A DNA stretch of 64,000 bases from a virus. The stretch is taken from the IMG/VR virus record IMGVR_UViG_3300017917_004998, positions 59,064-123,063 of that record. One strand, given 5' to 3'. The position numbers and the translations under genes are program-made. Shown here in pieces: positions 298-59,070 of this stretch; positions within the stretch are counted from its first letter, which is position 1; every line of letters starts with the position of its first letter. The notes under the pieces were generated by a model. That model had not been told where the DNA came from and ran no database searches. It saw nothing but the letters and a program-made list of their open reading frames with translations.

Positions 298-1158
298 ATG
301 CAACCCTTAGATCCAAATATTCCAGGTTCGGCAGAGCCTCAGGTAGGATATGGACCTGAGGTCATCAACATATACCCATTTCTAAATTCACTTTCGAATC
401 TTAAAAAGGTTTTATTTGTTACGACTAGCAACAGAAGTCCGTATGTTGCTAAACAAGGAGAAAAGGCTAAATCTTCACAACTTGCGGATTATTTAGCATA
501 TCTACTAAAACAAAAAGGATGTGACGTTGAAGTAATCGATGCATCTTCACTTACAATCCACAATTGCTTAGGTTGCGTAAGCGAATTGCACGGAAATCAA
601 TGCGGTGTAAAAGCTTCTAAAGTAAAGGACGAAAAGAAAAACCCAACCGGACATTTAAGGTGTTGGGCTAGTCACGATTTTGAAGATGACGAGCTTTGGA
701 AAATAGTTAACCCGTTGTACGAAAGCGAAGCGGTTGTTTTCTTTGCTTCCCAAAGATGGGGAAATGCAAATGCAATTTACCAGAAACTGATCGAAAGATT
801 AGATTGGATCGAAAACATGCATTATTCTATGGGCGAGCCAAGTACAATCTCTGGAAAGAAAGCAGGATTTGTATTGATTGGTCAGAACTGGAGAGTTCAG
901 CAAACAGTTGAAACGCAGAGGGAAGTTCTTGCATTTTATGGTTTTGACGTACCAGAGGAACTTTACATGGGTTGGCAATTTACAAGAGACGTTGAAGACG
1001 AAAGTGAAGAATCTTACAAAGAGGCACCTTACACATTTGAGCAAAGCTGGAATATGCAATTATTCATTCCCACGTTAAAAGAGTCGGAATCACAAAGAGA
1101 ACAGTCTACCTTTAAGGTAAAAGATTTTAACAGCTTTATATCAAGGTTATCCTGGTAG
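298..1158 (+). CDS. Flavodoxin-like / iron-sulfur flavoprotein (NADPH-dependent FMN reductase family)
   Basis: Motifs TTSNR, CLGC..QC..C cysteine cluster and VVFFASQRWG, KKAGFVLIG. ATG 298 is preferred over 253, which overlaps the upstream gene. Confidence 0.7.
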   Translation: MQPLDPNIPGSAEPQVGYGPEVINIYPFLNSLSNLKKVLFVTTSNRSPYVAKQGEKAKSSQLADYLAYLLKQKGCDVEVIDASSLTIHNCLGCVSELHGNQCGVKASKVKDEKKNPTGHLRCWASHDFEDDELWKIVNPLYESEAVVFFASQRWGNANAIYQKLIERLDWIENMHYSMGEPSTISGKKAGFVLIGQNWRVQQTVETQREVLAFYGFDVPEELYMGWQFTRDVEDESEESYKEAPYTFEQSWNMQLFIPTLKESESQREQSTFKVKDFNSFISRLSW

Positions 1159-1160
1159 GA

Positions 1161-1370
1161 TTAACCCTTTTTAGCTTCTTCGAAATCTTCTTCTGATAAT
1201 TTCCAACCTTTAATTTCTCCGCCAATGTATTCCTTAGCTTCAGAAAAAGTTGCTTTTGGATTTTCCTTTATGTAGTTAACCAATTTTTCTCTAATCGCCG
1301 GGTGAATTCCTTCACCTTCAGATAAGTTTGATTCGTTTACGAAGGTTTCAAAATCTGTAAGGTTTCTCAT
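1161..1370 (-). CDS. Small putative head-internal protein
   Basis: N-terminus MRNLTDFETFVNE resembles the T4 capsid-targeting sequence. GATATATA lies upstream at 1392-1399 on the minus strand. Confidence 0.55.
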   Translation of the reverse strand: MRNLTDFETFVNESNLSEGEGIHPAIREKLVNYIKENPKATFSEAKEYIGGEIKGWKLSEEDFEEAKKG

Positions 1371-1443
1371 ATCTGTTATTAATTTTCAATCTATATATCT
1401 AGATTATTTTTTTTGATCGTCTAGAGTAATTACATTTGGACAG

Positions 1444-1980
1444 ATGTTAAAATATTTTATCAACTATTCAAAGGAAAGCTTTCTAAAAACCTTAGCTATT
1501 TCTGCGGTCTGTTTGTTTTCTTATTTTGTAGCATGGCTTGTAGTCATATTTACCGGGGATGCAGATTTTGCTTTAAGGCTTCCGTTTATTTCGCCGTGGA
1601 TACATTCAGATCTTTCTCACTTTTTGATAAACATAATTCCTCTATTCGTTTTAATGCTCAGTGAAAAAAACAGATTTAAGATTTCGTGTCTGTTAATTAT
1701 ACCAATCTTAATCGAAGTGGCTTTTCTGCCATTAATTTTTTTTGGCACAGCCACAGTTATTGGGCTTTCTAAATTCATTTTCTTCTTGTTTGCGAGATTT
1801 ATGCTAACGAGAGAAAACAATAAAGTAATTCATCAATCCGTATTTGTGTTCATATTTACTTTGGAACTGTTACAAATCGGATCGGGTGACCTTATAAGTC
1901 ACGAAGGACACATTTTCGGTAGCATCCTTGGAATCATTTCAATTTATGCGGAGAAAAAAGGTCTCTTAAAGAGATGCTAA
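1444..1980 (+). CDS. Rhomboid-family intramembrane protease
   Basis: Multiple hydrophobic segments with HSDLSHFLIN, GLS and SHEGHIFG motifs. Confidence 0.65.
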   Translation: MLKYFINYSKESFLKTLAISAVCLFSYFVAWLVVIFTGDADFALRLPFISPWIHSDLSHFLINIIPLFVLMLSEKNRFKISCLLIIPILIEVAFLPLIFFGTATVIGLSKFIFFLFARFMLTRENNKVIHQSVFVFIFTLELLQIGSGDLISHEGHIFGSILGIISIYAEKKGLLKRC

Positions 1981-2544
1981 AAATTCTTTAAGAACCGACA
2001 TAATATCCTCGACGTTCCCAATCTCTTCTTTTCTATATCCAACGTTTCTATATTTGTCAACAAACTCTTCAAAACTTTTATAAAGGTCTTCGGCTAATTC
2101 TTTGTCTAATTCAGTAACCATAGAATTTTTAAAGCCCTCCATTCCCTTTCCAGTTCCAGATTCTCTAGCTTTATCTGTCGTAAAAGCTTCAATTGCATAT
2201 TTGTCTGGAGACTTGTATTCATACTCATATTCTTCCATTCCCTCTTCATCCTTACCAGCTGGAATCTTTTCGAATTCAACGTAGTCTTCCATTTCATTGG
2301 GTTCGAATGCAACAACGAACATTTTGCCAGTTGCTTTTTCTTTTAGTATAGCATATTCTGAGTAATCTGAAGCAACCAAATCAAATTTGATGTCAGACTG
2401 ATTCATAGAGATGTTTCTATCTGTTTCCGAATCCTCTTTATTCCAAGGAGACATCGGATCACTTGCTGTACCCGCTGGGTAGTTCTCTTCGCTTTCTGAA
2501 GTATTCCCGTTGAAATAATCTTCAAATGTTTTTATTACTCTCAT
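1966..2544 (-). CDS. Acidic hypothetical protein, putative head-internal
   Basis: Long ORF with N-terminus MRVIKTFEDYF. Confidence 0.6.
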   Translation of the reverse strand: MRVIKTFEDYFNGNTSESEENYPAGTASDPMSPWNKEDSETDRNISMNQSDIKFDLVASDYSEYAILKEKATGKMFVVAFEPNEMEDYVEFEKIPAGKDEEGMEEYEYEYKSPDKYAIEAFTTDKARESGTGKGMEGFKNSMVTELDKELAEDLYKSFEEFVDKYRNVGYRKEEIGNVEDIMSVLKEFLASL

Positions 2545-4028: not shown

Positions 4029-6146
4029 ATGGAAGAAAATTTGAAAAAATCGCTAGACAATCTATCTGGTGAGATGGGACCTAGTAAGATATCAGCAAGC
4101 AGAAGAAGTATGCCAGAAGACGATGACGATGATCTTGGCGGTGAATTTAAAAATTCTTCATCGAACTCAAAAACACCTGCTCTCGATAACTTTACTCGAG
4201 ATCTAACCGAGATGGCGATAAAGGGCGAGCTTGATCCAATCGTTGGCAGAGACGAAGAGATTGAAAGGGTATCACAGATTTTGGCAAGAAGGAAGAAAAA
4301 CAACCCAGTTCTAATTGGTGAACCTGGTGTTGGTAAATCTGCAATTGCTGAAGGACTTGCACTTAGAATTATTCAAAGGAAGGTTTCAAAGAATCTTTTA
4401 AACAAGAAAATCCTTACCCTGGATATGGGATCTGTTGTAGCAGGTACAAAATACAGAGGTCAATTTGAGGAGAGGATCAAGACGATTCTCGACGAACTAA
4501 AGAAGAATAAAGATATCATTATCTTCATAGACGAATTACATACCATAGTCGGTGCAGGCGGATCATCTGGATCATTGGATGCATCTAATATGTTTAAGCC
4601 AGCCTTGGCCAGAGGAGAGATCCAGTGTGTAGGTGCAACTACTTTAAACGAATATAGAACAAACATTGAGAAAGACGGTGCACTGGAGCGTAGATTCCAA
4701 AAGATCATAGTTGACCCGCCAACACCAGCAGAGACTCTCACGATCCTCAGAAACATTAAATCAAAATATGAGGATCACCACAATGTTGAATATACAGACG
4801 AAGCAATTGAGGTATGCGTCAAGCTCACAGAAAGGTTTATAACAGATCGCAATTTTCCTGATAAGGCCCTGGATGCTTTGGATGAAGCGGGCAGTAGAGC
4901 ACAGCTTACTCAGGTTAAAGTTCCAGATAGCCTAATCAAGCTGGAGCAGAACCTGGAAAAGATCAAAGCAGACAAGAAGGAATCTGTAACAAAACAGGAT
5001 TATGAAGCTGCAGCTAAATTCAGGGATCTCGAGAGGAAAGTTAATCTTAGCATTGAGATTGAAACTAAATCATGGGAGCAAAAATTAAAGGAGAAAAGAA
5101 AGATTGTTGATGCTGAAAGAGTTGCTGAAGTAGTTTCAATGATGACCGGGGTTCCTCTAAATAAAGTCACACAGTCAGAAAACCAAAAACTTGCACAGCT
5201 TGAAGAAACCCTGAAAGCAGAAGTAATAGGTCAATCTGTTGCAGTCACCAAAATCTCCAAAGCTATCCTCAGAAATAGACTTGGGTTAAAAGATCCAAAC
5301 AGACCAATAGGATCGTTTATTTTTATGGGTCCAACTGGGGTTGGAAAAACAGAGCTTGCGAAGAAACTGGCAGAAAACATATTTGGAGATAGAGATGCTT
5401 TAATCCGAATTGATATGTCGGAATACATGGAGAAATTCAATTCAACCAAATTAATCGGAGCTCCTCCGGGATACGTAGGACACGAAGATGGAGGTCAGTT
5501 AACAGAAAAGGTTCGCAGAAAACCATATTCTGTTGTTCTGTTTGATGAAATTGAAAAAGCACACCCCGACATTTTCAATTCTTTGCTTCAAATATTGGAT
5601 GAAGGATTTATTACAGATAGCTTAGGTAGAAAGATCAACTTTAAGAACTGTTTGATTATTCTAACATCTAATGTTGGACAAAGGAAAGCTTCTGAATTTG
5701 GTACAGGCGTTGGTTTTAACTCAGCAGATTCACAACAAAAAAAGAACGAGGAATCTTCTTCAATTATCAGAAAGGAATTAGCTAAAACATTCTCACCTGA
5801 GTTTTTGAATCGTGTTGACGAAGTAATCTATTTCAATTCATTAACTAAAGACGATCTGCTTAAAATTATCGAGGTTGAACTTAAAAAGATGTACCCGAGG
5901 TTTGAAGAAATAGGATATAAGATTTCCATATCGAAAGATCTTAAGGAGAAAATAGCAGAGATTGGGTATGATCCTAAATATGGTGCTAGACCGCTCAAAA
6001 GACTTTTGCAGAAATATGTAGAAGATACTATAGCTGAATTGGCAATCCAGCAAAAAATTCAGATTGGATCTAAGATTACATTATCACTAGATCCAAAAAA
6101 GAATCCAGATGAAGAAAATCCGGTTAAGGTAAAAATAGTCTTTTAA
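4029..6146 (+). CDS. clpC: ClpC-like AAA+ chaperone ATPase lacking the Clp-N domain
   Basis: Two Walker A motifs (GEPGVGKS, GPTGVGKT), Walker B motifs FIDELH and LFDEIEK, a UVR-like QDYEAAAKFRD segment, a GVGF ClpP-docking loop and GARPL. Confidence 0.9.
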   Translation: MEENLKKSLDNLSGEMGPSKISASRRSMPEDDDDDLGGEFKNSSSNSKTPALDNFTRDLTEMAIKGELDPIVGRDEEIERVSQILARRKKNNPVLIGEPGVGKSAIAEGLALRIIQRKVSKNLLNKKILTLDMGSVVAGTKYRGQFEERIKTILDELKKNKDIIIFIDELHTIVGAGGSSGSLDASNMFKPALARGEIQCVGATTLNEYRTNIEKDGALERRFQKIIVDPPTPAETLTILRNIKSKYEDHHNVEYTDEAIEVCVKLTERFITDRNFPDKALDALDEAGSRAQLTQVKVPDSLIKLEQNLEKIKADKKESVTKQDYEAAAKFRDLERKVNLSIEIETKSWEQKLKEKRKIVDAERVAEVVSMMTGVPLNKVTQSENQKLAQLEETLKAEVIGQSVAVTKISKAILRNRLGLKDPNRPIGSFIFMGPTGVGKTELAKKLAENIFGDRDALIRIDMSEYMEKFNSTKLIGAPPGYVGHEDGGQLTEKVRRKPYSVVLFDEIEKAHPDIFNSLLQILDEGFITDSLGRKINFKNCLIILTSNVGQRKASEFGTGVGFNSADSQQKKNEESSSIIRKELAKTFSPEFLNRVDEVIYFNSLTKDDLLKIIEVELKKMYPRFEEIGYKISISKDLKEKIAEIGYDPKYGARPLKRLLQKYVEDTIAELAIQQKIQIGSKITLSLDPKKNPDEENPVKVKIVF

Positions 6147-23282: not shown

Positions 23283-23454
23283 CTTAACCAAATCTTTAAT
23301 TCTTAAGGTTCTTAACCCAAACTTTAGTTCTTAGAGTGCTTAATCCCAAACTTTAATTTCTAATTAGCTTAATCCCAAACTTTAATTTCTAATTAGCTTA
23401 ATCCCAAACTTTATTATCTAGAGTGATTAGTCCCAAACTTTATTAATTAAAGAA
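23283..23454. repeat. Intergenic tandem array of about six 28-29-nt units
   Basis: Units start at 23283, 23311, 23339, 23368, 23397 and 23426 with core cttaatcccaaacttta. Units 3 and 4 are identical (cttaatcccaaactttaatttctaattag). Confidence 0.9.
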
Positions 23455-23563
23455 GTTTGATAAGATATCACTTTGCCCAAGCTTTATTGATTGTTTAATA
23501 AAGCATTACTTGGGAAACATCCATTTGCACCAACAGTATGATTATTAAAAATAATTAATAATT

Positions 23564-23851
23564 ATGGCAAAGACAACTAAGGAATTTTCATTTTTGGATT
23601 TAGACAAGGAACTATCAAAAATTACTGGGTTTGAAACTGGATCGATTTTAGCAGACAACACTTTTAGTGAGGTTGATGAATGGATCCCAACAGGCAACTA
23701 TTTATTGAATGCACAATTATCTGGAACCTTATTTGGTGGGATCCCAAACACAAGATCCCTCGGTTTGATGGGAGATCCAGGGTGTTTACGAAAAACCCAA
23801 AAGGTTAGGGTGTATGTATTAAAAACACAAGGTGAGTCGGATAGGACCTAA
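23564..23851 (+). CDS. uvsX: UvsX/RecA-like recombinase, part 1 (73-aa N-extein plus 22-aa IntN)
   Basis: IPTGNYLLNAQLSG..FGGIP...GDPG ends just before the second half of Walker A, followed by CLRKTQKVRVYV and a stop. Confidence 0.85.
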   Translation: MAKTTKEFSFLDLDKELSKITGFETGSILADNTFSEVDEWIPTGNYLLNAQLSGTLFGGIPNTRSLGLMGDPGCLRKTQKVRVYVLKTQGESDRT

Positions 23852-24369
23852 TTATAATCAAAATAGAAAAGTTAAGGATTAATAAAAATATGATGGATAG
23901 AATTCAAATAATTGAAGAGCTTAAGGCTTACCCAGATTTTTACAGCGATGTTGATCTAGAGAAATTGACAGAATCTGAAATTTCAGAATTGTTCAATAAA
24001 CACTGTGAGGAATTTTCGGAAGAGATTGAGATTGGGACTGTTTTCAATGATATGAAAGCACAAAGAATTCTGGCAGACACCCCAGATGGATGGATCGAAG
24101 TTGGTAAATTCGTAAAAAAGACACCAAGGGATATACACAGAGTTATTCTAAACGATGGATCTTTAGTTGAAGCTTCGTGCGATCACATGTTTGAAACTTC
24201 TAGAGGATGGGTGATGTCTAAAGATCTTCAAGATGAAGAACTTATCTTAACAAAAAACGGGTTCGTTGGGGTTAAGGAAAATGAAATTATAGCAAACGAA
24301 GAAGTTTATGATTGGGAGATCCTACACGAGAATCACCGATACTGGGTTGGTAATATGTCTTCACACAAC
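23783..24369 (+). mobile_element. Atypically split intein 1 in UvsX (IntN 23783-23848, IntC 23890-24369)
   Basis: Cys1 follows GDPG. IntC has TPDGW, block B EASCDHMF, block F VYDWEI and block G SHN followed by Thr(+1). Splicing restores GDPG-TGKS. Confidence 0.85.
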
Positions 24370-25074
24370 ACCGGTAAATCTTTCGTTTGCCTGAACGTTG
24401 CAAGAGAAGCTCAGAAAAAAGGATATGATGTAATCTATTGTGATACCGAGGGAGCGATCGATAAAAGCTCTGCTATTAAATTTGGTATTGATGCTAACAA
24501 GGTAAGATATCAGCCAATCAAGACTGTAACTGAATTCCAGACCTTTGTAGCTAACCTTTTGGAGCTAGTTAAGAAAGCAAAGGCAAACGGAGCTAATCCT
24601 AAGATATTGCTGATTCTGGACTCTTTGGGTATGTTAAGCACTGATAAGGAATTAAGAGATGCGATCGAAGGTAAGAATGCTGCTGACATGGGAGCTAAAG
24701 CTAAGGAATTAAGAAAGTTATTCCGTGTTATCACGTTGGATCTGACTGCTGCTAAGATTCCACTGGTTTGTACGAATCACGTTTACTGTCTTACAGCAGG
24801 TCACAAAATCTTAATGTCCGATGACACATATAAAAACATCGAGGATATTGTAGTTGGTGATGTTGTTAAAACATTGGCCGGCGATAGAAACGTTTGTTCG
24901 ACTTCTGAGTTTGAAGATAAGGAGGTTATTAAATTGACTCTTGAAAACGGTCAAACCATCGAGTGCACTCCCAACCATAAATTTTTGGTTGAAAACGAAT
25001 GGACCAACGAACAATCATGGAAATGCTCCGATGATTTGGTAGAGGGAGATTACATTTTAAGAACCAGCGAATAA
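23890..25074 (+). CDS. uvsX: UvsX part 2: IntC1 + 139-aa middle extein + IntN2
   Basis: SHN|TGKSFVCL..YCDTEG..LDSLG (Walker B)..NHVY|CLTAGH..ECTPNHKF, then a stop. Confidence 0.85.
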   Translation: MMDRIQIIEELKAYPDFYSDVDLEKLTESEISELFNKHCEEFSEEIEIGTVFNDMKAQRILADTPDGWIEVGKFVKKTPRDIHRVILNDGSLVEASCDHMFETSRGWVMSKDLQDEELILTKNGFVGVKENEIIANEEVYDWEILHENHRYWVGNMSSHNTGKSFVCLNVAREAQKKGYDVIYCDTEGAIDKSSAIKFGIDANKVRYQPIKTVTEFQTFVANLLELVKKAKANGANPKILLILDSLGMLSTDKELRDAIEGKNAADMGAKAKELRKLFRVITLDLTAAKIPLVCTNHVYCLTAGHKILMSDDTYKNIEDIVVGDVVKTLAGDRNVCSTSEFEDKEVIKLTLENGQTIECTPNHKFLVENEWTNEQSWKCSDDLVEGDYILRTSE

Positions 25075-25264
25075 TTAAACCGATTGATGTGGTATATGCA
25101 CACAAAAGCATATACCATGTTTTCTGTAGAATAACTAATATAAAATCATGAAAAAAATAAAGATAATCAAAAAAGAAGTACTAGAGGAAAGAAAGAAAGT
25201 TTATGACGTAACTGTAGAGGGAGCACATCATTATTTCCTAGAAAATGGAGTAATCTCTCATAAT
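24787..25264 (+). mobile_element. Conventionally split intein 2 in UvsX (IntN 24787-25071, 95 aa; IntC 25148-25264, 39 aa)
   Basis: CLTAGHKILMSD..KNIEDI.VGD.V and TPNHKF (block B). IntC is VYDVTVEGAHHYFLENGVISHN followed by Thr(+1). Confidence 0.9.
25087..25125 (+). other. Stem-loop between UvsX part 2 and part 3
   Basis: tggtatatgc (25090-25099) and gcatatacca (25108-25117) form a perfect 10-bp stem, followed by gttttct. Confidence 0.6.
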
Positions 25265-25798
25265 ACAGGGAGTGGATATATGCCAACTAAAGAATCTTCA
25301 GGTGGTGACGGACCTATTTTTGCAATGTCTGTAATCTCTTTCCTTTCTAAAGCACAGTTAAAAGAAGGTAATAGCACAACTAAGACTGGTATCGTTGTTA
25401 CATCAAATCTTAAGAAAAGCAGATTCACAATCCCAGAGCCTGTTAAGTTTCACATCTCATTCCTAAACGGTATGAACCCTTATGTTGGTTTGCAAGATTT
25501 CGTTTCTTGGGAAGCTTGCGGAATTGGCAAAGGAAAGTTTGAAGAAGTGAAAAACGAAAGCGGAGTCAAAGAAACTGTCTTTATACCAAGCGAAAGTGCA
25601 CAAGCCAGATGGGCGGTTAAACACTTGGGAAAAACTATTACGTCATCACAGCTATTCACACCTGAAGTTTTCACCGATGAGGTTCTCAGACAACTTGACG
25701 AGAATGTTATTAAGAAGCATTTCATATTGCCAACAATGGGAAACAATGATGAGATTGCAAACGCTTTGGAAGCTGATTTAGAAGATGAACAGGAATAA
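25148..25798 (+). CDS. uvsX: UvsX part 3: IntC2 + 177-aa C-extein
   Basis: SHN|TGSGYMPTKESSGGDG..SVISFLSK..KSRF..GMNPYVGL matches the UvsX C-terminal region. Confidence 0.85.
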   Translation: MKKIKIIKKEVLEERKKVYDVTVEGAHHYFLENGVISHNTGSGYMPTKESSGGDGPIFAMSVISFLSKAQLKEGNSTTKTGIVVTSNLKKSRFTIPEPVKFHISFLNGMNPYVGLQDFVSWEACGIGKGKFEEVKNESGVKETVFIPSESAQARWAVKHLGKTITSSQLFTPEVFTDEVLRQLDENVIKKHFILPTMGNNDEIANALEADLEDEQE

Positions 25799-27892: not shown

Positions 27893-29010
27893 TGGAATCT
27901 GTTTTTCCTAGCATAAAAAACGAAAAAGCAAAGAGAGTATGGTTAATAACCGATACCCATTTGGGCGTAAAAAATAGCTCAAATGAATGGATAGAAATCA
28001 TCGATACCTATTTCAAGGATTTCTTTTTTCCACTGGTTAAAAAGCACTACAGACCTGGGGATGTTCTTATCCACTTAGGTGATTGGTACGATTCTAGACA
28101 GAGCGTCAATCTAAGAGTATTAAATCTAGGTGTTGAGATTGCAGAGAAGATGTCGCTCACGTTTCCAGATGGCATTTGGATTCTAATCGGCAACCATGAC
28201 ATATTTGGGAAAAACACAAACGATGTGAATTCGTTAAAAAGCATCAAATGGATTCCTTCTATTACAATTTGCGAAGAACCTGCCAGCATCCAATTGGGAG
28301 AAAAGTCATTCTTTATGATGCCATGGAGAAAAGACTCAGAGACCGAAGAGTCCTGCTTGGATAGTGCAGAATACCACGACTATCTTTGTTGTCACTCTGA
28401 TATCAGAGGACTTAAGTTTAACAGGTACGTGAACGTTGAGCACGGCTCAGATTCAACTAAGTTTAGAAAATTTGGCAGGGTTTATTCCGGACACATTCAT
28501 TATGCACAAGAGTCTGGAAATATAAAAATGCTTGGCTCACCTTATGAGCTAACTAGATCTGATATGGACAATCCGAAGGGTATTACTCTTTTGGATTTAG
28601 AAACCGGGCAAGAAACGTTCTTTGAAAATGATATTTCTCCGAAGTTCAAAAGATATCAGTTTGAAGAAATTCTAGAGAAAACCATAGATGATGTCAATTC
28701 AGATTTCGAGAACAACTTTGTTGATATCATGATAGATCCAAGAATGGCTTTAAAGGCACCACTGAACATTCTAACGGACTCTATAGTAAATCCAAGAAAG
28801 ATATCTTTCCATCCCTACGATCCTAATCAGGCTTCTTCGCTAGAGGAAAGAATGAGATCTACCGACGAGAGACAATTCGATGTGCTTGACTTCATCGAGG
28901 AATATGTCTCACAGATGGATCATGACAAGGAAACCAGAGATAGAATACTTTCAACAATCAATAAATTGCATTCAATTGTAATTACACAGGATCAGGACAA
29001 AAAGATATGA
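27889..29010 (+). CDS. Recombination nuclease subunit (T4 gp47/SbcD/Mre11-like)
   Basis: Phosphoesterase motifs TDTHLG, HLGDWYD, GNHD, CHSD and SGHIH, GSPYE. Confidence 0.9.
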   Translation: MMESVFPSIKNEKAKRVWLITDTHLGVKNSSNEWIEIIDTYFKDFFFPLVKKHYRPGDVLIHLGDWYDSRQSVNLRVLNLGVEIAEKMSLTFPDGIWILIGNHDIFGKNTNDVNSLKSIKWIPSITICEEPASIQLGEKSFFMMPWRKDSETEESCLDSAEYHDYLCCHSDIRGLKFNRYVNVEHGSDSTKFRKFGRVYSGHIHYAQESGNIKMLGSPYELTRSDMDNPKGITLLDLETGQETFFENDISPKFKRYQFEEILEKTIDDVNSDFENNFVDIMIDPRMALKAPLNILTDSIVNPRKISFHPYDPNQASSLEERMRSTDERQFDVLDFIEEYVSQMDHDKETRDRILSTINKLHSIVITQDQDKKI

Positions 29011-29201
29011 AAATAACAAAAATTGAGTGGAGAAATTTTTCCTCTTACGGAAACAGAACCCAGGAATTAAATCTGGGTAATGAATCAAGTCTATTTCAGA
29101 TAAACGGAGAAAATGGTACGGGTAAGTGTCTTTATCCCGATACAATTCTAAAAGTTAAGGTATCCAAAGAAACTTTAGCCAAAATAAACAACTTACGTTA
29201 A
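29007..29201 (+). CDS. gp46/SbcC/Rad50-like ATPase part 1 (40-aa N-extein plus 24-aa IntN)
   Basis: MKITKIEWRNFSSYG...INGENGTGK|CLYPDTILKVKV, then TAA. Confidence 0.85.
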   Translation: MKITKIEWRNFSSYGNRTQELNLGNESSLFQINGENGTGKCLYPDTILKVKVSKETLAKINNLR

Positions 29202-29624
29202 CCACTTCAGGGAACACCAATATACTTAGAATTTTTTAAGAACTGACAAATGGAGGAAATTGAAATCACTATTAAGGATCTGCATGATTTTTTAACACTA
29301 CACCCAGAAGAGAAGGGAAATATTTTAATCGAAGGAAAGGATGGATGGTGCGAGATTGATGAATCTGCAATCACTGCTCCAGATTCAGTTTTTTACACTA
29401 TTCGAACTGAGAATGGAAAGGAAGCAAAGTGTTCTCCTGATCACCAGTTCTATAATGACACCTGGATTAAATGTAAATACCTAAATGTTGGCTATCCAAT
29501 TCTAACCGATCTTGGATATTCTAAAATAACACATCTGGAGTTAGAAAAAGAAAAAGCAGACCTTTATGATATTGAAGTGAGAGATTCCCACAATTATTAT
29601 GGAAATGGAATACTCTCCCACAAC
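29127..29624 (+). mobile_element. Atypically split intein in gp46 (IntN 29127-29198, IntC 29250-29624)
   Basis: Cys1 follows GTGK. IntC has KCSPDHQF, LYDIEV and SHN followed by Ser(+1). Two in-frame stops (TAA 29199, TGA 29244) separate the halves. Confidence 0.88.
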
Positions 29625-31169
29625 TCATCCATCTCGCATGCTATTTCGTATGGCCTATATGGAAAGGTTGAAGGAAAAAAACTAAAAGATATACCAAACA
29701 GGATCAATGGTAATGCCTGGGTAAGAATAACACTAGATCATCTGGGATCTTCCGTTGTAATAGAAAGAGGAATAGATCCGAATCTTTTCAGGCTTTTTAT
29801 CGATGGCAAGGAGTTTGATCAAGCAGGAAGCAGATCACTCCAGGATTATCTTACTGATGATATTCTCGGTATTCCATATTACGTGTTCAACAACACGATA
29901 TCTCTTTCCATCAACGACTTCAAGAGCTTTATTAAAATGACACCTCAGGATAAAAGAGGAATCATAGATAAAATATTCGGATTCCACATCCTGAATCAGA
30001 TGAGGGAGATCCTTAAATCCGAGACCAAGAAGATAAAGGAATCACTTGATACACTTTCAGGGAAACTTATTTCACTAGACAGCTCAATCAAGAGCTCTTC
30101 AGCCGAAATGGAATCCCTAATTAATGAAATAGAGGAGGAATCTGTAGCCCTAATCGAAGATCTTACATCTAAGATTACAACATTCGAAAATCTACAAACA
30201 CTCCACAATCAGAAGATGTCTGAATTCAGAATCGGAGAAAGTGAGCTAAATCAGAAAACCAGAAACACCAATTCTCTTTTGATAAATGCGCAGTCCAAAT
30301 TGAGAGATCTGGAGAGAAAGCTAAAACTTTATGATCAGAACATTTGTCCGACTTGTGAGGGATCCCTGGAAACCGATTTTCACGCCAATATGAAATCGTC
30401 TATGTTATCTGAAAAAAAATCTATTGATGACAACATAGCAGAGATAGAGAAAACGCTAGGAGAACTTAGAATTCTCGAATTAAATTGCGTTACAACCAGA
30501 AACGAACTTGTTGAAAAGGGAATGAAAATAAAGAATAAGCTTGATTCAATCCATCAAGAATTAAAGCTTCTAAAATCTAAAAAGGGAGACAAACAGGCAC
30601 AGTCTTTACAAAGAATCATAGATTCTCTTACTTCAGATCAGGAAAATACAATCTCGATCAAATTCAAAGAGGAAGAAAAACACAATTGGCTTAAAACTAT
30701 CGACGAAATACTTGGCGAGAAGGGTGTTAAACAGATGGCGATTAGAACCATTCTACCTTCTCTAAATTCAGAAATTCTAGAGCTTCTGAGAAAGATGAAT
30801 CTAAGCTACCAGGTAGTTTTTGACGAGGAATTTAATGCCATGATATATCAGATGGGAATTGAGGTTCCGTCGCAGACATTAAGCACTGGTGAAATGAAAA
30901 AAATAGATTTCGTTGTTCTGGTTGCGATTATGAAGCTTATGAAGCTTAAATTTAGCTCGATAAATCTTCTTTTCCTCGATGAGCTTTTCAGCTCTGTTGA
31001 TCCAGAAGGTGTTCATTCGATCCTTGGGATTCTCAAAAATTCCTGCTCTGAACTTGGACTAAATATATTCGTCATTAATCACGCACCTATGCCACATGAG
31101 ATATTTGATTGGAAAATAGATGTTCAGAAAAAGAACAACTTCTCGTCTTTTACACTCGAGAAAATTTAA
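29250..31169 (+). CDS. gp46-like ATPase part 2 (IntC + C-extein)
   Basis: After SHN come SSISHAISYGLYGK, a coiled coil, the zinc hook CPTC, signature LSTGE and Walker B LFLDELF. Confidence 0.9.
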   Translation: MEEIEITIKDLHDFLTLHPEEKGNILIEGKDGWCEIDESAITAPDSVFYTIRTENGKEAKCSPDHQFYNDTWIKCKYLNVGYPILTDLGYSKITHLELEKEKADLYDIEVRDSHNYYGNGILSHNSSISHAISYGLYGKVEGKKLKDIPNRINGNAWVRITLDHLGSSVVIERGIDPNLFRLFIDGKEFDQAGSRSLQDYLTDDILGIPYYVFNNTISLSINDFKSFIKMTPQDKRGIIDKIFGFHILNQMREILKSETKKIKESLDTLSGKLISLDSSIKSSSAEMESLINEIEEESVALIEDLTSKITTFENLQTLHNQKMSEFRIGESELNQKTRNTNSLLINAQSKLRDLERKLKLYDQNICPTCEGSLETDFHANMKSSMLSEKKSIDDNIAEIEKTLGELRILELNCVTTRNELVEKGMKIKNKLDSIHQELKLLKSKKGDKQAQSLQRIIDSLTSDQENTISIKFKEEEKHNWLKTIDEILGEKGVKQMAIRTILPSLNSEILELLRKMNLSYQVVFDEEFNAMIYQMGIEVPSQTLSTGEMKKIDFVVLVAIMKLMKLKFSSINLLFLDELFSSVDPEGVHSILGILKNSCSELGLNIFVINHAPMPHEIFDWKIDVQKKNNFSSFTLEKI

Positions 31170-44027: not shown

Positions 44028-44801
44028 ATGGCAAGAAGCAAACCAAAACCAGAAAAGATAGTACAGGAGCAGATCAAGGCTTCTCTAGACTCAATTCTAC
44101 TCGATGAGATGCTGGATATAGAATCAGTAAGGCCTCACGAATTACCTAGGATGAAGACCACAGATGTCATGAATTTTACTGAGGTCACCCAATCAACGGG
44201 AACCGATGCAAAATCCCTGATGGATTCTATAGTTAAGTTCTATCTGGACGAAAATCTCATCGACCAAACATCCTACGTCGATTACAAGAAAAAGATAGAT
44301 TCGATGAACATCTCGTCGATGATGCTACAGCTAAAAACAGCTCAGCATGCTATCACAAAGTTGCTTGAAGAGATAGATCTCGGGATGGCAAATCCAAGGA
44401 TGTTCGAGGTCCTAGCACAGCTGCAGTCGCAAATCATGCAGATGCCTAAAGACTATCAGAACTACATGGAAAAGATGGAGGAAAGCTACAAAAGAATAGG
44501 CAAGGAAATGGAGTCTAAAACCAATTCCGGTGCGATAGCTTTAGATTCCCCTAGTGGAGATGTTTACTCTGGTGTCAAACCTGGTGTGACCGAATCTGGT
44601 GGGATCAAAGTCAGAGGCACAAAAAGTCTCATGGAGGGTTTAAGAGACATTCTGGGTGCTGAGATCGAAGATATCAAACCGATCGAAGAGAACGAAAATT
44701 CTGTGGTGAACGCGAAGAAGAAAACTGAGATTGATGCTTCTAGAAACGTTTTAATACAGGATGATGATAAGCTAGAGATTGACGAGGACCTATTCTTATG
44801 A
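44028..44801 (+). CDS. Hypothetical protein, candidate terminase small subunit
   Basis: Helical ORF directly upstream of, and overlapping, the terminase. The assignment rests on position only. Confidence 0.4.
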   Translation: MARSKPKPEKIVQEQIKASLDSILLDEMLDIESVRPHELPRMKTTDVMNFTEVTQSTGTDAKSLMDSIVKFYLDENLIDQTSYVDYKKKIDSMNISSMMLQLKTAQHAITKLLEEIDLGMANPRMFEVLAQLQSQIMQMPKDYQNYMEKMEESYKRIGKEMESKTNSGAIALDSPSGDVYSGVKPGVTESGGIKVRGTKSLMEGLRDILGAEIEDIKPIEENENSVVNAKKKTEIDASRNVLIQDDDKLEIDEDLFL

Positions 44802-45289
44802 GTGTAGAAATAGAAGAAGGACTGATAGACTCCAATTATTGGTCCACGAAAAGAGTCGAAGAATTACTTTGGAGAGTCGAAGAAGAAGGTCTGGATTACA
44901 AATCTGTAGACAACCCTTTCCATGATGGCGATCCTGAACTGAAGAGAAGTAATCTCTTATGGGAATATACCAATGACGAATTACTGGAAATGCAAAAGTG
45001 TGCGAAAGATGTAATCTATTTCGCTAAATATTGCAGGGTAATGACTGACGACGGATTGGTCTATGTGAAGCTTAGAGACTACCAGCAATCTGTGTTAAGA
45101 GAGTATCAGGTAAACCGCTTTAATGTTTTTTTGGCCCCGCGACAGGTGGGCAAATGTCTCTTACCCACAACTTATATAGTAGATAAAAACAATAAAAAGG
45201 TTTCTATAAAGTCCTTAAAAAAACAAAAAAACAAAGATATTTATTCATTTGTGAAATCTTTTTTGTATAAGCTATACAATTTCTTGTAA
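44798..45289 (+). CDS. terL: Large terminase (gp17) part 1 (119-aa N-extein plus 44-aa IntN)
   Basis: KCAKDVIYFAKYC..LRDYQ..RFNVFLAPRQVGK|CLLPTTYI, then a stop. Confidence 0.88.
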   Translation: MSVEIEEGLIDSNYWSTKRVEELLWRVEEEGLDYKSVDNPFHDGDPELKRSNLLWEYTNDELLEMQKCAKDVIYFAKYCRVMTDDGLVYVKLRDYQQSVLREYQVNRFNVFLAPRQVGKCLLPTTYIVDKNNKKVSIKSLKKQKNKDIYSFVKSFLYKLYNFL

Positions 45290-46884
45290 CGTCTGCCATA
45301 GTGTCAGATACATACATAGACTATATAAAATAGATTAAAAATGAAACAAAGAGAAAAAAAAGAATTTTTGTGTAAAAATTGTGGAACAAACTACACCTCT
45401 AGCTCAATGAACAGCCAATTCTGTACAATTGACTGCAGGAAAGAATTTAAGGTAAAAGACGGGAAAGAACCAGATAAAGATTATGTGATCTGTAAAATCT
45501 GCAGCAGGGCAACATCAAACGTTACTGGTGTGCACCTTAGAAACCATCCGGGCTGGACAGCTGAGAGATACAAAAAAGAATTCCCAGGAATTCCTGTTAT
45601 AGCTTCTAACGTGCTTGAAAGAATAACAGAGGGCTCTAAAAAAGCAGGTGCACTAATGAGCGAGCCACACCATAGAGAAAGACAAAGCAAGATGATGCTT
45701 GGAGAAAAAAACCCAATGCACAAATCGAATACCACTGACGAAGAAAGAAGATCAGTGTCTCCGTTTTCTCCAGATTTCTACCTCAAAAAATTTCCCAATA
45801 TTACCCAGGAAGAAGCAGAAGCCATGGCTAAAGATAAGCTTTCAGAAAACGCAATCATCTCGTGGGTTAAAAAAGAATATTGGATGAATAAGGGCTACAC
45901 TGAGGAGGAAGCAATCAAAATTATTTCAAAAAAGCAGGCGACATTTTCTTTGGAGAAGTGCATCGAGAAATACGGAAAGCAAGAGGGGATTAAAAAATGG
46001 GAGGAAAGACAAAAGAAATGGAAGTATAAAGTCTTTAATGATACAACCCACATCTCAAGAGGATATTCTAAAATTAGCGAAGAATTCATAGGTTCTTTGC
46101 TTGATGTTTTAAATAAAATGGGCTATCCCAATTCTGACATCCTACATGGTAAAAATGAAAAATTCATCAGGACTAAAGAAGGTAATGTTTATAAATATGA
46201 TTTGGTTTTTTCTAATCTAAAGAAAATAATCGAATTTAATGGGGATTTTTGGCATGCAAACCCAAATTTGTTTGAATCAAATTATCTAAATAAGCCAAAA
46301 AATATGACCGCAAAAGAGATATGGGAATATGATGCGGAAAAGAAAAAAACAGCAGAGTCTCACGGATATACAGTTTTTACTTTGTGGGAGGGAGACTATA
46401 GACAAGATAAAACAATGGCAATTAAAAAGTGCCTAGATTACTTACTGATATGAGAGTAAAACTTAAAAAATTAATACTAAGATTAATCTCCCTGATAGAA
46501 AGATTTGAATTCAGGCATCTGGATCTTGACCAGAACGATCACAACAAAAAAATCATAAATGAATCAGACATCGATGTTCAGGTTCTGTCTGATACTGGAT
46601 TTGTTAAAGCTTATAAATATCTAGAAACTCAGCCCTATGACGTTTGGTTTCTAGAACTGGAAAATGGTGATTTTATAGACTGCGCAGACATTCACATTGT
46701 ATATGACCAGGATCTGAACGAAGTCCTCGTCAAAGACCTTCAAATAGGAGATCTTGTGATAACATCAAAAGGTACGAGCAAAGTAAAGTTCTTAGAGAAT
46801 ACCGGTATCCCAGTTTCGATGGTCGATTTATCGATAGATCATCCAAATCACAGATATTACACAAACGATATACTTTCTCACAAC
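45155..46884 (+). mobile_element. Split intein in TerL (IntN 45155-45286, IntC 46450-46884) with an intervening endonuclease gene
   Basis: Cys1 follows RQVGK. IntC has SDTGF, DCADIHI, MVDLSI and SHN followed by Ser(+1). Splicing restores Walker A RQVGK-S. Confidence 0.88.
45341..46453 (+). CDS. Free-standing homing endonuclease, Vsr-like/PD-(D/E)XK with Zn-finger and NUMOD3-like DNA-binding modules
   Basis: CKNC..CTIDC, CKIC..HLRNH, RQSKMMLGEKNPM and YDLVFSNLKKIIEFNGDFWH motifs. Confidence 0.8.
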   Translation: MKQREKKEFLCKNCGTNYTSSSMNSQFCTIDCRKEFKVKDGKEPDKDYVICKICSRATSNVTGVHLRNHPGWTAERYKKEFPGIPVIASNVLERITEGSKKAGALMSEPHHRERQSKMMLGEKNPMHKSNTTDEERRSVSPFSPDFYLKKFPNITQEEAEAMAKDKLSENAIISWVKKEYWMNKGYTEEEAIKIISKKQATFSLEKCIEKYGKQEGIKKWEERQKKWKYKVFNDTTHISRGYSKISEEFIGSLLDVLNKMGYPNSDILHGKNEKFIRTKEGNVYKYDLVFSNLKKIIEFNGDFWHANPNLFESNYLNKPKNMTAKEIWEYDAEKKKTAESHGYTVFTLWEGDYRQDKTMAIKKCLDYLLI

Positions 46885-48333
46885 AGTATCACGTCTGCGA
46901 TTATTCTTGTTTGGTATCTGCTTTTCAACCACGATAAAAATGCTATGATCCTAGCAAACGTTGGTTCTACTGCGGAAGAATTGATGGACAAGATCAAAGC
47001 GATAGTGAAAGGCCTTCCGTGGTTTTTGAAACCCGGAATTATTGTGAATAACGTTATGTCAATGAAATTTGACAATGGCTGCAGGGCAATTGCTAAAACG
47101 ACAACCAAAACATCAGCGATTGGTTTTACCATCCACTTTTTGTATATGGATGAGTTTGCACACATCCATCCCAATTTTATTGAAAGCTTTTTTAGATCTA
47201 CGTATCCGACAGTTTCCTCGTCAAAGGTTTCCCGTATTATCATAACCTCGACACCCAACGGAATGAACAAATTCCATGACATCTACCAGGATGCAGTCAC
47301 AGGAGAAAACAGTTTTAACCCGATTAGAGTTGACTGGTGGCAGGTTCCTGGCAGGGATGACGAATGGAAAAAAGAGGAGATTGCCAACCTGGGCAGTGAG
47401 GAATTGTTCAATCAGGAATACGGAAACCAATTCTTAAGTTCTTCCACGTTGCTATTGGGATCTAACGAGCTCAAAAAAATTAAAAGCAACGAGGCAGAGT
47501 ATGTGTGGCGTGAGATTGATGCTCTTGGAGATGCCGGGGTCAAGTACGAAAATCTGAGATGGCATCCGAAATTTTCACCGGACGGCAGGGATCTTGATTT
47601 AATGTCCAAATCATTTGTGCTGTCTGTAGACCTTGCTGGTGGTAGCAAAGGTGACTATACAGTCCTGAACATTTTCAAAATAATCCCGTTGCCAAGAAAG
47701 ATCATAGAAGCTATGGACGATTTCTCTGACGAGGCAGATTTTTTCGGTCTTCTTCAGGTTGGAATCTTCAGAGACAATGAGATCCAGATTGAGGACTTTA
47801 AAAAATTCCTTGAGATCCTGGTAACTAAATTCTTCGACAAAGAGAAGATAAAAATTCTGCTGGAGGTCAATTTCAAGGGTGATCTTCTTCTGGACAAGCT
47901 TACACTAAACGACAACATCCCACCTGAGGTCTTTTTGTACACTAAACACACTGAATCTGCAAGAACCGCTAAACCAGGTATTAAGTACAACGAGAAAAAC
48001 AAGGAAAAATACTGTGAGATGCTTAGAATCCTGACTAGATCTAACAGGATCATTCTGAATGAAAAATTGTGGACAATCCCAGAGCTTTTCTCATTTGGTC
48101 TTACTGGAAAGGGAACTTATGCTAGTCAATCCGGACACGATGATGTTGCGATGACTGTTGTTAATCTGTCTGCATTATTTGAAGGCAATGCCTTTTTTGA
48201 CCTGATCAGCGAAATATACGATCAGCTTGATGAGTCTTACAGAGAATTAATTGAAAGCAAACTTGATGATAGCGACGAAGAAGGCGGTACCAAAGAGGGA
48301 GGTTTCTATGGTTCGTTCAGTAAACTCCTTTAA
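46450..48333 (+). CDS. terL: Large terminase part 2 (IntC + C-extein)
   Basis: After SHN come Walker B LYMDEFAH, IITSTPNG, FNQEY, LSVDLAGG and GHDDVAM. ATG 46450 overlaps the endonuclease TGA. Confidence 0.9.
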   Translation: MRVKLKKLILRLISLIERFEFRHLDLDQNDHNKKIINESDIDVQVLSDTGFVKAYKYLETQPYDVWFLELENGDFIDCADIHIVYDQDLNEVLVKDLQIGDLVITSKGTSKVKFLENTGIPVSMVDLSIDHPNHRYYTNDILSHNSITSAIILVWYLLFNHDKNAMILANVGSTAEELMDKIKAIVKGLPWFLKPGIIVNNVMSMKFDNGCRAIAKTTTKTSAIGFTIHFLYMDEFAHIHPNFIESFFRSTYPTVSSSKVSRIIITSTPNGMNKFHDIYQDAVTGENSFNPIRVDWWQVPGRDDEWKKEEIANLGSEELFNQEYGNQFLSSSTLLLGSNELKKIKSNEAEYVWREIDALGDAGVKYENLRWHPKFSPDGRDLDLMSKSFVLSVDLAGGSKGDYTVLNIFKIIPLPRKIIEAMDDFSDEADFFGLLQVGIFRDNEIQIEDFKKFLEILVTKFFDKEKIKILLEVNFKGDLLLDKLTLNDNIPPEVFLYTKHTESARTAKPGIKYNEKNKEKYCEMLRILTRSNRIILNEKLWTIPELFSFGLTGKGTYASQSGHDDVAMTVVNLSALFEGNAFFDLISEIYDQLDESYRELIESKLDDSDEEGGTKEGGFYGSFSKLL

Positions 48334-59060: not shown

Positions 59061-59070
59061 ATTAAAACAC

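Follow-up and report, generated by a model that had tools for sequence, protein, structure and literature searches.

A phage uvsX recombinase gene probably broken into three by two different split inteins

How can a phage make a working recombinase from a gene that lies in three pieces? The question is raised by uvsX in IMG/VR virus record IMGVR_UViG_3300017917_004998, of which we analyzed positions 59,064 to 123,063. We call this stretch of 64,000 nucleotides (nt) the window, and give positions in its coordinates. Direct reading of the window between 23564 and 25798 finds UvsX encoded by three open reading frames (ORFs), all on the plus strand, in which three recombinase segments (exteins 1 to 3) are bordered by the N-terminal (IntN) and C-terminal (IntC) fragments of two putative split inteins, inteins 1 and 2. 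We conclude, from sequence comparison and predicted structure, that this is very probably a functional uvsX that two independent split inteins have divided into three genes of one orientation.

With the intein parts set aside, the locus reads as an ordinary recombinase. Pfam matches RecA in the middle of ORF2, and the middle extein matches UvsX structures in the PDB (7z3m, expect value (E) 2.4e-25; 9gbg, E 1.3e-21; T4 UvsX 3io5, E 2.5e-11). Joined in silico, the exteins give 73+139+177 = 389 amino acids (aa) and 42.5 kDa, and align with the intein-free 389-aa UvsX proteins P0045 and P0039 from 1-389 to 1-389 with zero gaps and 94% identity, far beyond chance. The Walker A motif GDPGTGKS (GxxxxGK[ST]), as expected of a RecA-fold UvsX, is restored in the joined product; junction 1 (GDPG/TGKS, the slash marking the splice site) is identical in P0045 and P0039, and junction 2 is conserved except for the residue following the splice site (+1). 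Taken singly, extein 1 shares 93% identity with P0061, an intein-free UvsX, over its residues 1-75 and 97% with the nearest intein-free alleles, extein 2 is 100% identical to many intein-free UvsX proteins, and extein 3 is 86% identical to residues 213-389 of P0061 and 90% to its nearest intein-free alleles. A preliminary description of this DNA, made from the sequence alone, had proposed the same anatomy: the ORF translations bear out all of its lengths, including a 22-aa IntN and a 39-aa IntC, and the divided Walker A that it had put together as GDPG-TGKS is indeed whole in the gapless product. Two syntenic viral contigs (L001, L002) carry an uninterrupted gene reading GDPGTGKS and NHVYTGGG, whose 3' neighbors, a small gene and a DnaB-like helicase gene, are those of the window. 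The first pass of the viral contig scan matched intein-free relatives only, a degenerate DNA pattern for GLMGDPGC had zero matches in the viral contig set, and blastn against phage records returned nothing close.

These comparisons bear on the suggestion that the locus is a decaying, non-functional uvsX, with the recombinase coming from a different gene or from the host. The record covers about half of the genome, which leaves space for another gene; the exteins, however, are 90-100% identical to intact UvsX with zero frameshifts or internal stops, there is strong constraint in all segments, and the layout persists down to 46% identity. We regard decay as so improbable as to be nearly negligible. 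An intact uvsX elsewhere, which the preliminary description had allowed for, was not found in the 123-kb record from which the window is taken (~52% complete), and the pieces are under constraint rather than decayed.

What, then, occupies the junctions? The first holds a VidaL-family intein inserted in the P-loop, for which splicing activity is predicted. The N-terminal part of ORF2 matches VidaL (PDB 6vgv; E 4.9e-9; residues 60-163, 104 residues, 31% identity), and the crystallized VidaL chain ends SHA/SGK, the same kind of P-loop junction as that of intein 1 (before [ST]GK). A 24-sequence alignment served to build an AlphaFold model of ORF2, whose top Foldseek match is 6vgv (root-mean-square deviation 1.4 Å); gp41-1 and numerous further inteins come next, as does UvsX for the core. 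In this model IntC1 starts with a ~55-aa N-terminal helical extension of four short helices and continues into a beta core, with per-residue confidence (pLDDT) of 81-95 over residues 1-140 and lower values (69, 83) in the last two blocks. The splicing residues of a Hedgehog/intein (HINT) fold are present, namely C74 of ORF1 (Cys1), the block B His, block F, the terminal His-Asn and a +1 Thr, and H99, D141, S157, S158, H159 and N160 of IntC1 are invariant in 24 sequences. The IntN1 core C-L-x-K-x-x-K-V-x-[IV]-Y is kept in ~40 ORF1-type clusters, whose tails are mostly 22-35 aa long.

The place of this split can be read from contiguous relatives, a 188-aa intein in UvsX P0012 and a 148-aa intein in a PhoH-like protein of L011. 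Aligned to these, IntN1 is the first beta-hairpin, and the break precedes a helical segment that belongs to IntC1. Natural atypical splits occur after strand beta-2 (VidaL, PolB16) or after the first helix (AceL, GOS TerL), with IntN lengths of 15-37 aa (PMC13014065). A short IntN (22 aa) ending after the first beta-hairpin and a long IntC (160 aa) mark intein 1 as atypically split, and its alignment fits the first of these types, with the break after beta-strand 2. The PhoH-like protein (L011 2758-3903) carries its contiguous 148-aa VidaL-family intein in the P-loop as well (GPAG/CLTKNEKLRVYVL ... SSHN/TAKT); because a member sits in the P-loop of this protein, the VidaL family appears to move between the P-loops of different phage ATPases.

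Intein 2 is, to judge from its blocks and its relatives, a conventionally split mini-intein. Pfam Intein_splicing (PF14890) matches IntN2 with E 3.4e-14 and IntC2 with E 3.8e-6 (profile positions 122-155); together with the 6vgv match of IntC1, these hits, one in the C-terminal region of ORF2 and the other where ORF3 begins, uphold the intein assignments that had first been made from the sequence alone. The blocks CLTAGH, TPNH, VYDVTVEGAHHYF and ISHN/T are all present, as in class 1 mini-inteins, and C300, P361 and H363 of IntN2 are invariant in the alignment of middle chains. Contiguous 138-aa mini-inteins occupy site 2 in P0026 and P0011, and the break in the window corresponds to their uninterrupted loop between blocks B and F. 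The division into 95 aa + 39 aa is that of conventional splits, in which an IntN of ~100 aa and an IntC of ~35-50 aa part at the usual endonuclease insertion point. With both split points mapped by contiguous relatives, the two inteins differ in split architecture, as the preliminary description had held. Intein 2 matches the gp41-1 chain weakly in sequence (E 0.0087), and the Foldseek matches to gp41-1 are not assignable to it, the IntN2 model being of low confidence (pLDDT 41-81) and the match ranges not reported. A third uvsX intein site occurs in P0278 and P0280, in which IntC2 is followed by a 13-residue mini-extein, a contiguous ~135-aa intein and then the rest of extein 3.

Table 1. Parts of the three-piece uvsX locus, in window coordinates.
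Feature	Position	Strand	Description
ORF1	23564-23851	+	95 aa = 73-aa extein ending GDPG + 22-aa tail starting CLRKTQ
Extein 1	23564..23782	+	UvsX residues 1-73; end is the first half of Walker A (GDPG)
IntN1	23783..23851	+	22-aa N-fragment of a putative VidaL-family intein; Cys1, basic beta-hairpin motif; includes TAA stop
ORF1-ORF2 spacer	23852..23889	+	38 nt; AAGGA ~11 nt 5' of ATG
ORF2	23890-25074	+	394 aa = 160 aa (..SSHN) + 139-aa extein (TGKS..NHVY) + 95 aa (CLTAGH..)
IntC1	23890..24369	+	160-aa C-fragment; block B (SCDH), block F (VYDWEILHENHRYW), block G (SSHN)
Extein 2	24370..24786	+	UvsX residues 74-212; TGKS (second half of Walker A) to CTNHVY
IntN2	24787..25074	+	95-aa N-fragment of a putative conventionally split mini-intein; Cys1, block B TPNH; includes stop
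ORF2-ORF3 spacer	25075-25147	+	73 nt; contains hairpin 25086-25121
ORF3	25148-25798	+	216 aa = 39 aa (..ISHN) + 177-aa extein (TGSG..)
IntC2	25148..25264	+	39-aa C-fragment of intein 2; basic N-terminus, block F (VYDVTVEGAHHYF), block G (ISHN)
Extein 3	25265..25798	+	UvsX residues 213-389; +1 Thr first (TGSGYMPTKE); includes stop

Are the intein halves used for splicing, or only for docking? Of the intein-bearing clusters, 37/37 have Ser, Thr or Cys as the +1 residue of site 2, and of the intein-free ones (P0038-P0120) 82/87 have Ala. A switch from Ala to Ser/Thr/Cys that accompanies only the intein is what one would expect of a nucleophile in use, and a +1 Ser/Thr/Cys may mark alleles able to accept intein 2. 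If instead the three chains were held together non-covalently, the intein halves serving to dock them without forming a peptide bond, the switch would make little sense; both inteins, moreover, have an invariant Cys1, block B His, terminal His-Asn and +1 nucleophile over 8-24 sequences, and an unspliced P-loop would be broken by ~180 residues. Docking has its precedents, since split-intein halves do bind each other and a fragmented phage ribonucleotide reductase reportedly assembles via interaction domains derived from a mobile element, but as an account of the whole locus we consider it very unlikely.

Are the breaks themselves real? An assembly or sequencing artefact could have split intein 1, or both inteins, in a phage whose inteins are contiguous. 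We hold this to be extremely improbable, given that ~40 independent ORF1-type clusters end 22-35 aa past Cys1, the nearest (93-94% identical) within two codons of the window stop, that 28 IntC1-type proteins begin with Met at equivalent positions, and that the ORF1 frame meets five stops within the 38-nt spacer. The independent metagenome contig L007 (57 kb) likewise has all three genes, with different spacer lengths and a 341-aa gene between ORF2 and ORF3. What speaks for an artefact is that relatives have contiguous forms of both inteins, and that the ORF2 frame is open from 23845 to its ATG, so that one indel would fuse ORF1 and ORF2.

The layout is also recurrent. A protein search with ORF2, counted in 90%-identity clusters, returned 91 intein-free clusters, 16 with intein 1 split only, eight with intein 2 split only and eight with both inteins split (an IntC-extein-IntN chain; window included), besides four in which intein 1 is split and intein 2 contiguous, one with intein 2 contiguous only, and one with intein 1 contiguous and intein 2 split. 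The eight middle-chain clusters (IntC1-extein-IntN2) span 46-80% identity, and searches with ORF1 and ORF3 gave ~40 clusters of extein 1 plus IntN1 and 37 of IntC2 plus extein 3. The three-piece arrangement, which had been put forward as at least rare, is recurrent rather than unique. L007 has all three genes at the DNA level, the middle-chain clusters being otherwise seen at the protein level; its IntN1 is 29-30 aa long, its ORF1-ORF2 spacer 122 nt, and its site-2 +1 residue Ser.

Every part shows signs of selection. Between the window and L007, pN (nonsynonymous) is 0.07-0.35 and pS (synonymous) 0.63-0.78 in all seven segments, including the four intein fragments; pS is saturated, and the two values are therefore compared directly and not as dN/dS ratios. 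The closest relatives of the parts form a mosaic: the exteins are nearest to intein-free alleles, IntC1 (72%) to an intein-1-only phage, and IntN2 (96%) to intein-2-only phages. This mosaic fits independent, recent movement of the two inteins, and the data fit each intein being a separate mobile element.

The relatives show where an endonuclease-like gene can lie. Between IntN2 and IntC2, L007 has a 341-aa DUF7487 ORF (4199-5224; DUF7487 E 7e-39), and L008 has, between IntN1 and IntC1 and overlapping both, a 419-aa ORF that is 33% identical (E 1e-25) to an ORF in the terminase gap of the window. The uvsX locus of L007 is flanked and interrupted by two endonuclease-like genes (923-2446, minus strand, and 4199-5224), both with repeated KYGD motifs and the former with a weak REase_MTES_1575 match. 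The relatives thus span a series from intein-free genes through either intein alone and contiguous forms to an endonuclease-like gene between the halves. The window has zero ORFs in either spacer and hence lacks the free-standing endonuclease of a fractured gene (Dassa et al., 2009), which L007 and L008 have; it looks as though an endonuclease gene was either lost here or never gained.

With two inteins in one gene, how would each half find its partner? Net charges are +4 for IntN1 and -19 for IntC1, against -11 for IntN2 and +2 for IntC2, the last with a very basic start, and these polarities are kept across the family. Because the polarity of the pairs is reversed, right pairs should attract and wrong pairs (IntC1 and IntN2 in the middle chain; IntN1 and IntC2) should repel. 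The two inteins are also only ~20% identical, and we expect their splicing to be orthogonal. ORF2 carries an IntC at its start and an IntN at its end, which the preliminary description had recognized as the geometry of cyclic proteins. We rejected cyclization of ORF2 as unlikely: IntC1 has blocks B, F and G and IntN2 brings A and B, so that the two would overlap rather than complete one fold, and both are strongly acidic.

Assembly would then proceed from three chains with computed masses of 10.5 kDa (A, UvsX 1-73 + IntN1), 44.7 kDa (B, IntC1 + UvsX 74-212 + IntN2) and 24.0 kDa (C, IntC2 + UvsX 213-389). The basic 22-aa hairpin of IntN1 would dock into IntC1, whose acidic HINT fold is nearly complete, and Cys1, the block B His, the terminal Asn and Thr+1 would splice Gly73 to Thr74. 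This would rebuild the P-loop GDPGTGKS, for which reason ATPase activity is expected to be strictly splice-dependent. Acidic IntN2 and basic IntC2 would associate as conventional split inteins do, joining Tyr212 to Thr213 directly after NHVY, at the start of the DNA-binding loop region. The two reactions could occur in either order, and the product would be an ordinary 389-aa, 42.5-kDa UvsX. Going further, we lean slightly towards regarding the locus as natural, selected tandem protein trans-splicing, in which one enzyme would be made from three gene products by two co-resident split inteins kept orthogonal by different split sites and reversed charge. On this reading, which would be unreported in the literature, the family has kept the full evolutionary series and supplies ready-made orthogonal pairs with an IntN of ~22 aa and an IntC of 39 aa.

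Trans-splicing would need all three genes to be expressed. They adjoin, and no terminator is predicted between them, which suggests co-transcription. RNA folding gave no stable structure in the ORF1-ORF2 spacer (z = +0.9). In the ORF2-ORF3 spacer it gave a hairpin (25086-25121) with a perfect 14-bp stem and an 8-nt loop, followed by UUUUCU (-19.5 kcal/mol, z = -4.6, 0/200 shuffles as stable). A sigma-70/terminator scan found no plus-strand terminator-like site between the ORFs, and left this hairpin unflagged too; the scan was uninformative. The hairpin occupies the place where L007 has an endonuclease-like gene, and is a candidate partial terminator, stabilizer or scar of a lost endonuclease gene. 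Directly upstream of ORF1, a long intergenic region holds an array of tandem repeats that share a CCCAAACTTTATT-like core (23283-23454). The gene leaders (23540-23563, 23852-23889 and 25122-25147) are A/T-rich, with a clear AAGGA only for ORF2, and the helicase adjoining uvsX is most similar (~40%) to Lak megaphage helicases; from leaders and helicase together we would guess at a host with weak Shine-Dalgarno use, possibly one of the Bacteroidota.

The uvsX inteins are not alone in this genome. The 123-kb record has four split inteins: the two in uvsX, one atypically split in a gp46/Rad50-like gene and one in the terminase. The gp46/Rad50-like ATPase (29007-31169) is broken in its Walker A (GENGTGK/C), with an IntN of 24 aa and an IntC of 125 aa ending LSHN/S; this IntC is 27% identical to IntC1 of uvsX, and the fragments have the same charge polarity (+3 and -13). 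The terminase large subunit (44798-48333) is split into an IntN of 44 aa (after QVGK/C) and an IntC of 152 aa, with a 370-aa endonuclease-like ORF in the gap (45341-46453). All three atypical inteins of the record share one charge polarity, with 27-32% identity among their IntC parts, which raises the question of how four split inteins in one phage avoid cross-splicing.

Several points weigh against a functional, trans-spliced uvsX. The ORF2 frame is open for 15 codons 5' of its ATG, and a one-base error near 23842-23848 could mimic the split of intein 1; this worry is answered by the closest ORF1 relatives, which come from other assemblies and stop within two codons of the same place. IntN1 of the window is among the shortest of its family, and the strong hairpin 5' of ORF3 might reduce ORF3 expression. 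The three atypically split inteins of one charge polarity could cross-react within their shared genome, and a second uvsX might conceivably lie in the missing part of it.

Could splicing itself be a control? Our reading of a trans-spliced uvsX might be extended by making the inteins a post-translational switch that times the recombinase, for example through redox at Cys1 or through fragment stoichiometry. Such a role would suit the position of intein 1 in the P-loop, where activity would depend on splicing, as well as the strong hairpin before ORF3 and the presence of four split inteins in DNA-metabolism and packaging genes of one genome. We nevertheless give it a small chance: we saw no sign of regulation, alleles that have identical exteins but lack inteins are common, so that the inteins are dispensable for this type of phage, and the endonuclease-like genes of relatives fit selfish elements.

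We suggest that the uvsX locus is of interest beyond this phage. For post-translational joining of proteins, split inteins are the principal tools, and three-segment assembly needs two pairs that do not cross-react, which have so far been hand-picked and hand-tuned. Nature appears to have solved three-segment joining repeatedly in one essential phage enzyme, and the family offers co-evolved orthogonal pairs to test, in which one outer chain bears a very short IntN and the other a short IntC. How splits arise could be studied on either intein, since each occurs both contiguous and split, and intein-free alleles with identical exteins allow a population-level view of intein gain and loss.

Each intein alone is of a known kind, one of the VidaL family and the other a conventionally split mini-intein; it is the combination that stands out. 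The host gene of VidaL, we presume, is also uvsX. Intein 1 shares with VidaL (6vgv/6vgw) its Cys1, a very short IntN, a split after the first beta-hairpin (the S1 site; PMC13014065) and a P-loop site. It differs in the length of its IntN (22 aa, against 16 aa in VidaL), in its +1 residue (Thr, not Ser), in ~35 extra N-terminal helical residues in its IntC, and, unlike VidaL, in being co-resident with a second split intein in one gene.

The locus is likewise reminiscent of fractured genes (gp41-1 to gp41-9, NrdJ-1, IMPDH-1; Dassa et al., 2009, PMC2677866), in which a split intein interrupts a gene of phage DNA metabolism and the halves lie on one strand. Split-intein fragments carry opposite charges there, as do the pairs of the window, and L007 and L008 match the fractured-gene layout with an endonuclease-like gene between the halves. 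In contrast, the window has no endonuclease gene in its spacers, its host gene is uvsX, which in that study is a neighbor gene only, and its two split inteins give rise to an IntC/IntN middle chain. Genes with several contiguous inteins also have more than one conserved site, but there one polypeptide carries them all, whereas here three chains must meet.

Our literature search for natural genes with two split inteins returned engineered systems only, which is not proof of absence. Three reports (PMC11185735; PMC12707363; PMC7210297) describe engineered tandem trans-splicing or protein transposition, with three polypeptides and two orthogonal split inteins. In the Muir design, VidaL or Cat serves on the N side and conventional Cfa on the C side, and the donor, IntC-insert-IntN, has the topology of ORF2. 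Those systems are man-made; the uvsX locus is natural, recurrent and under selection.

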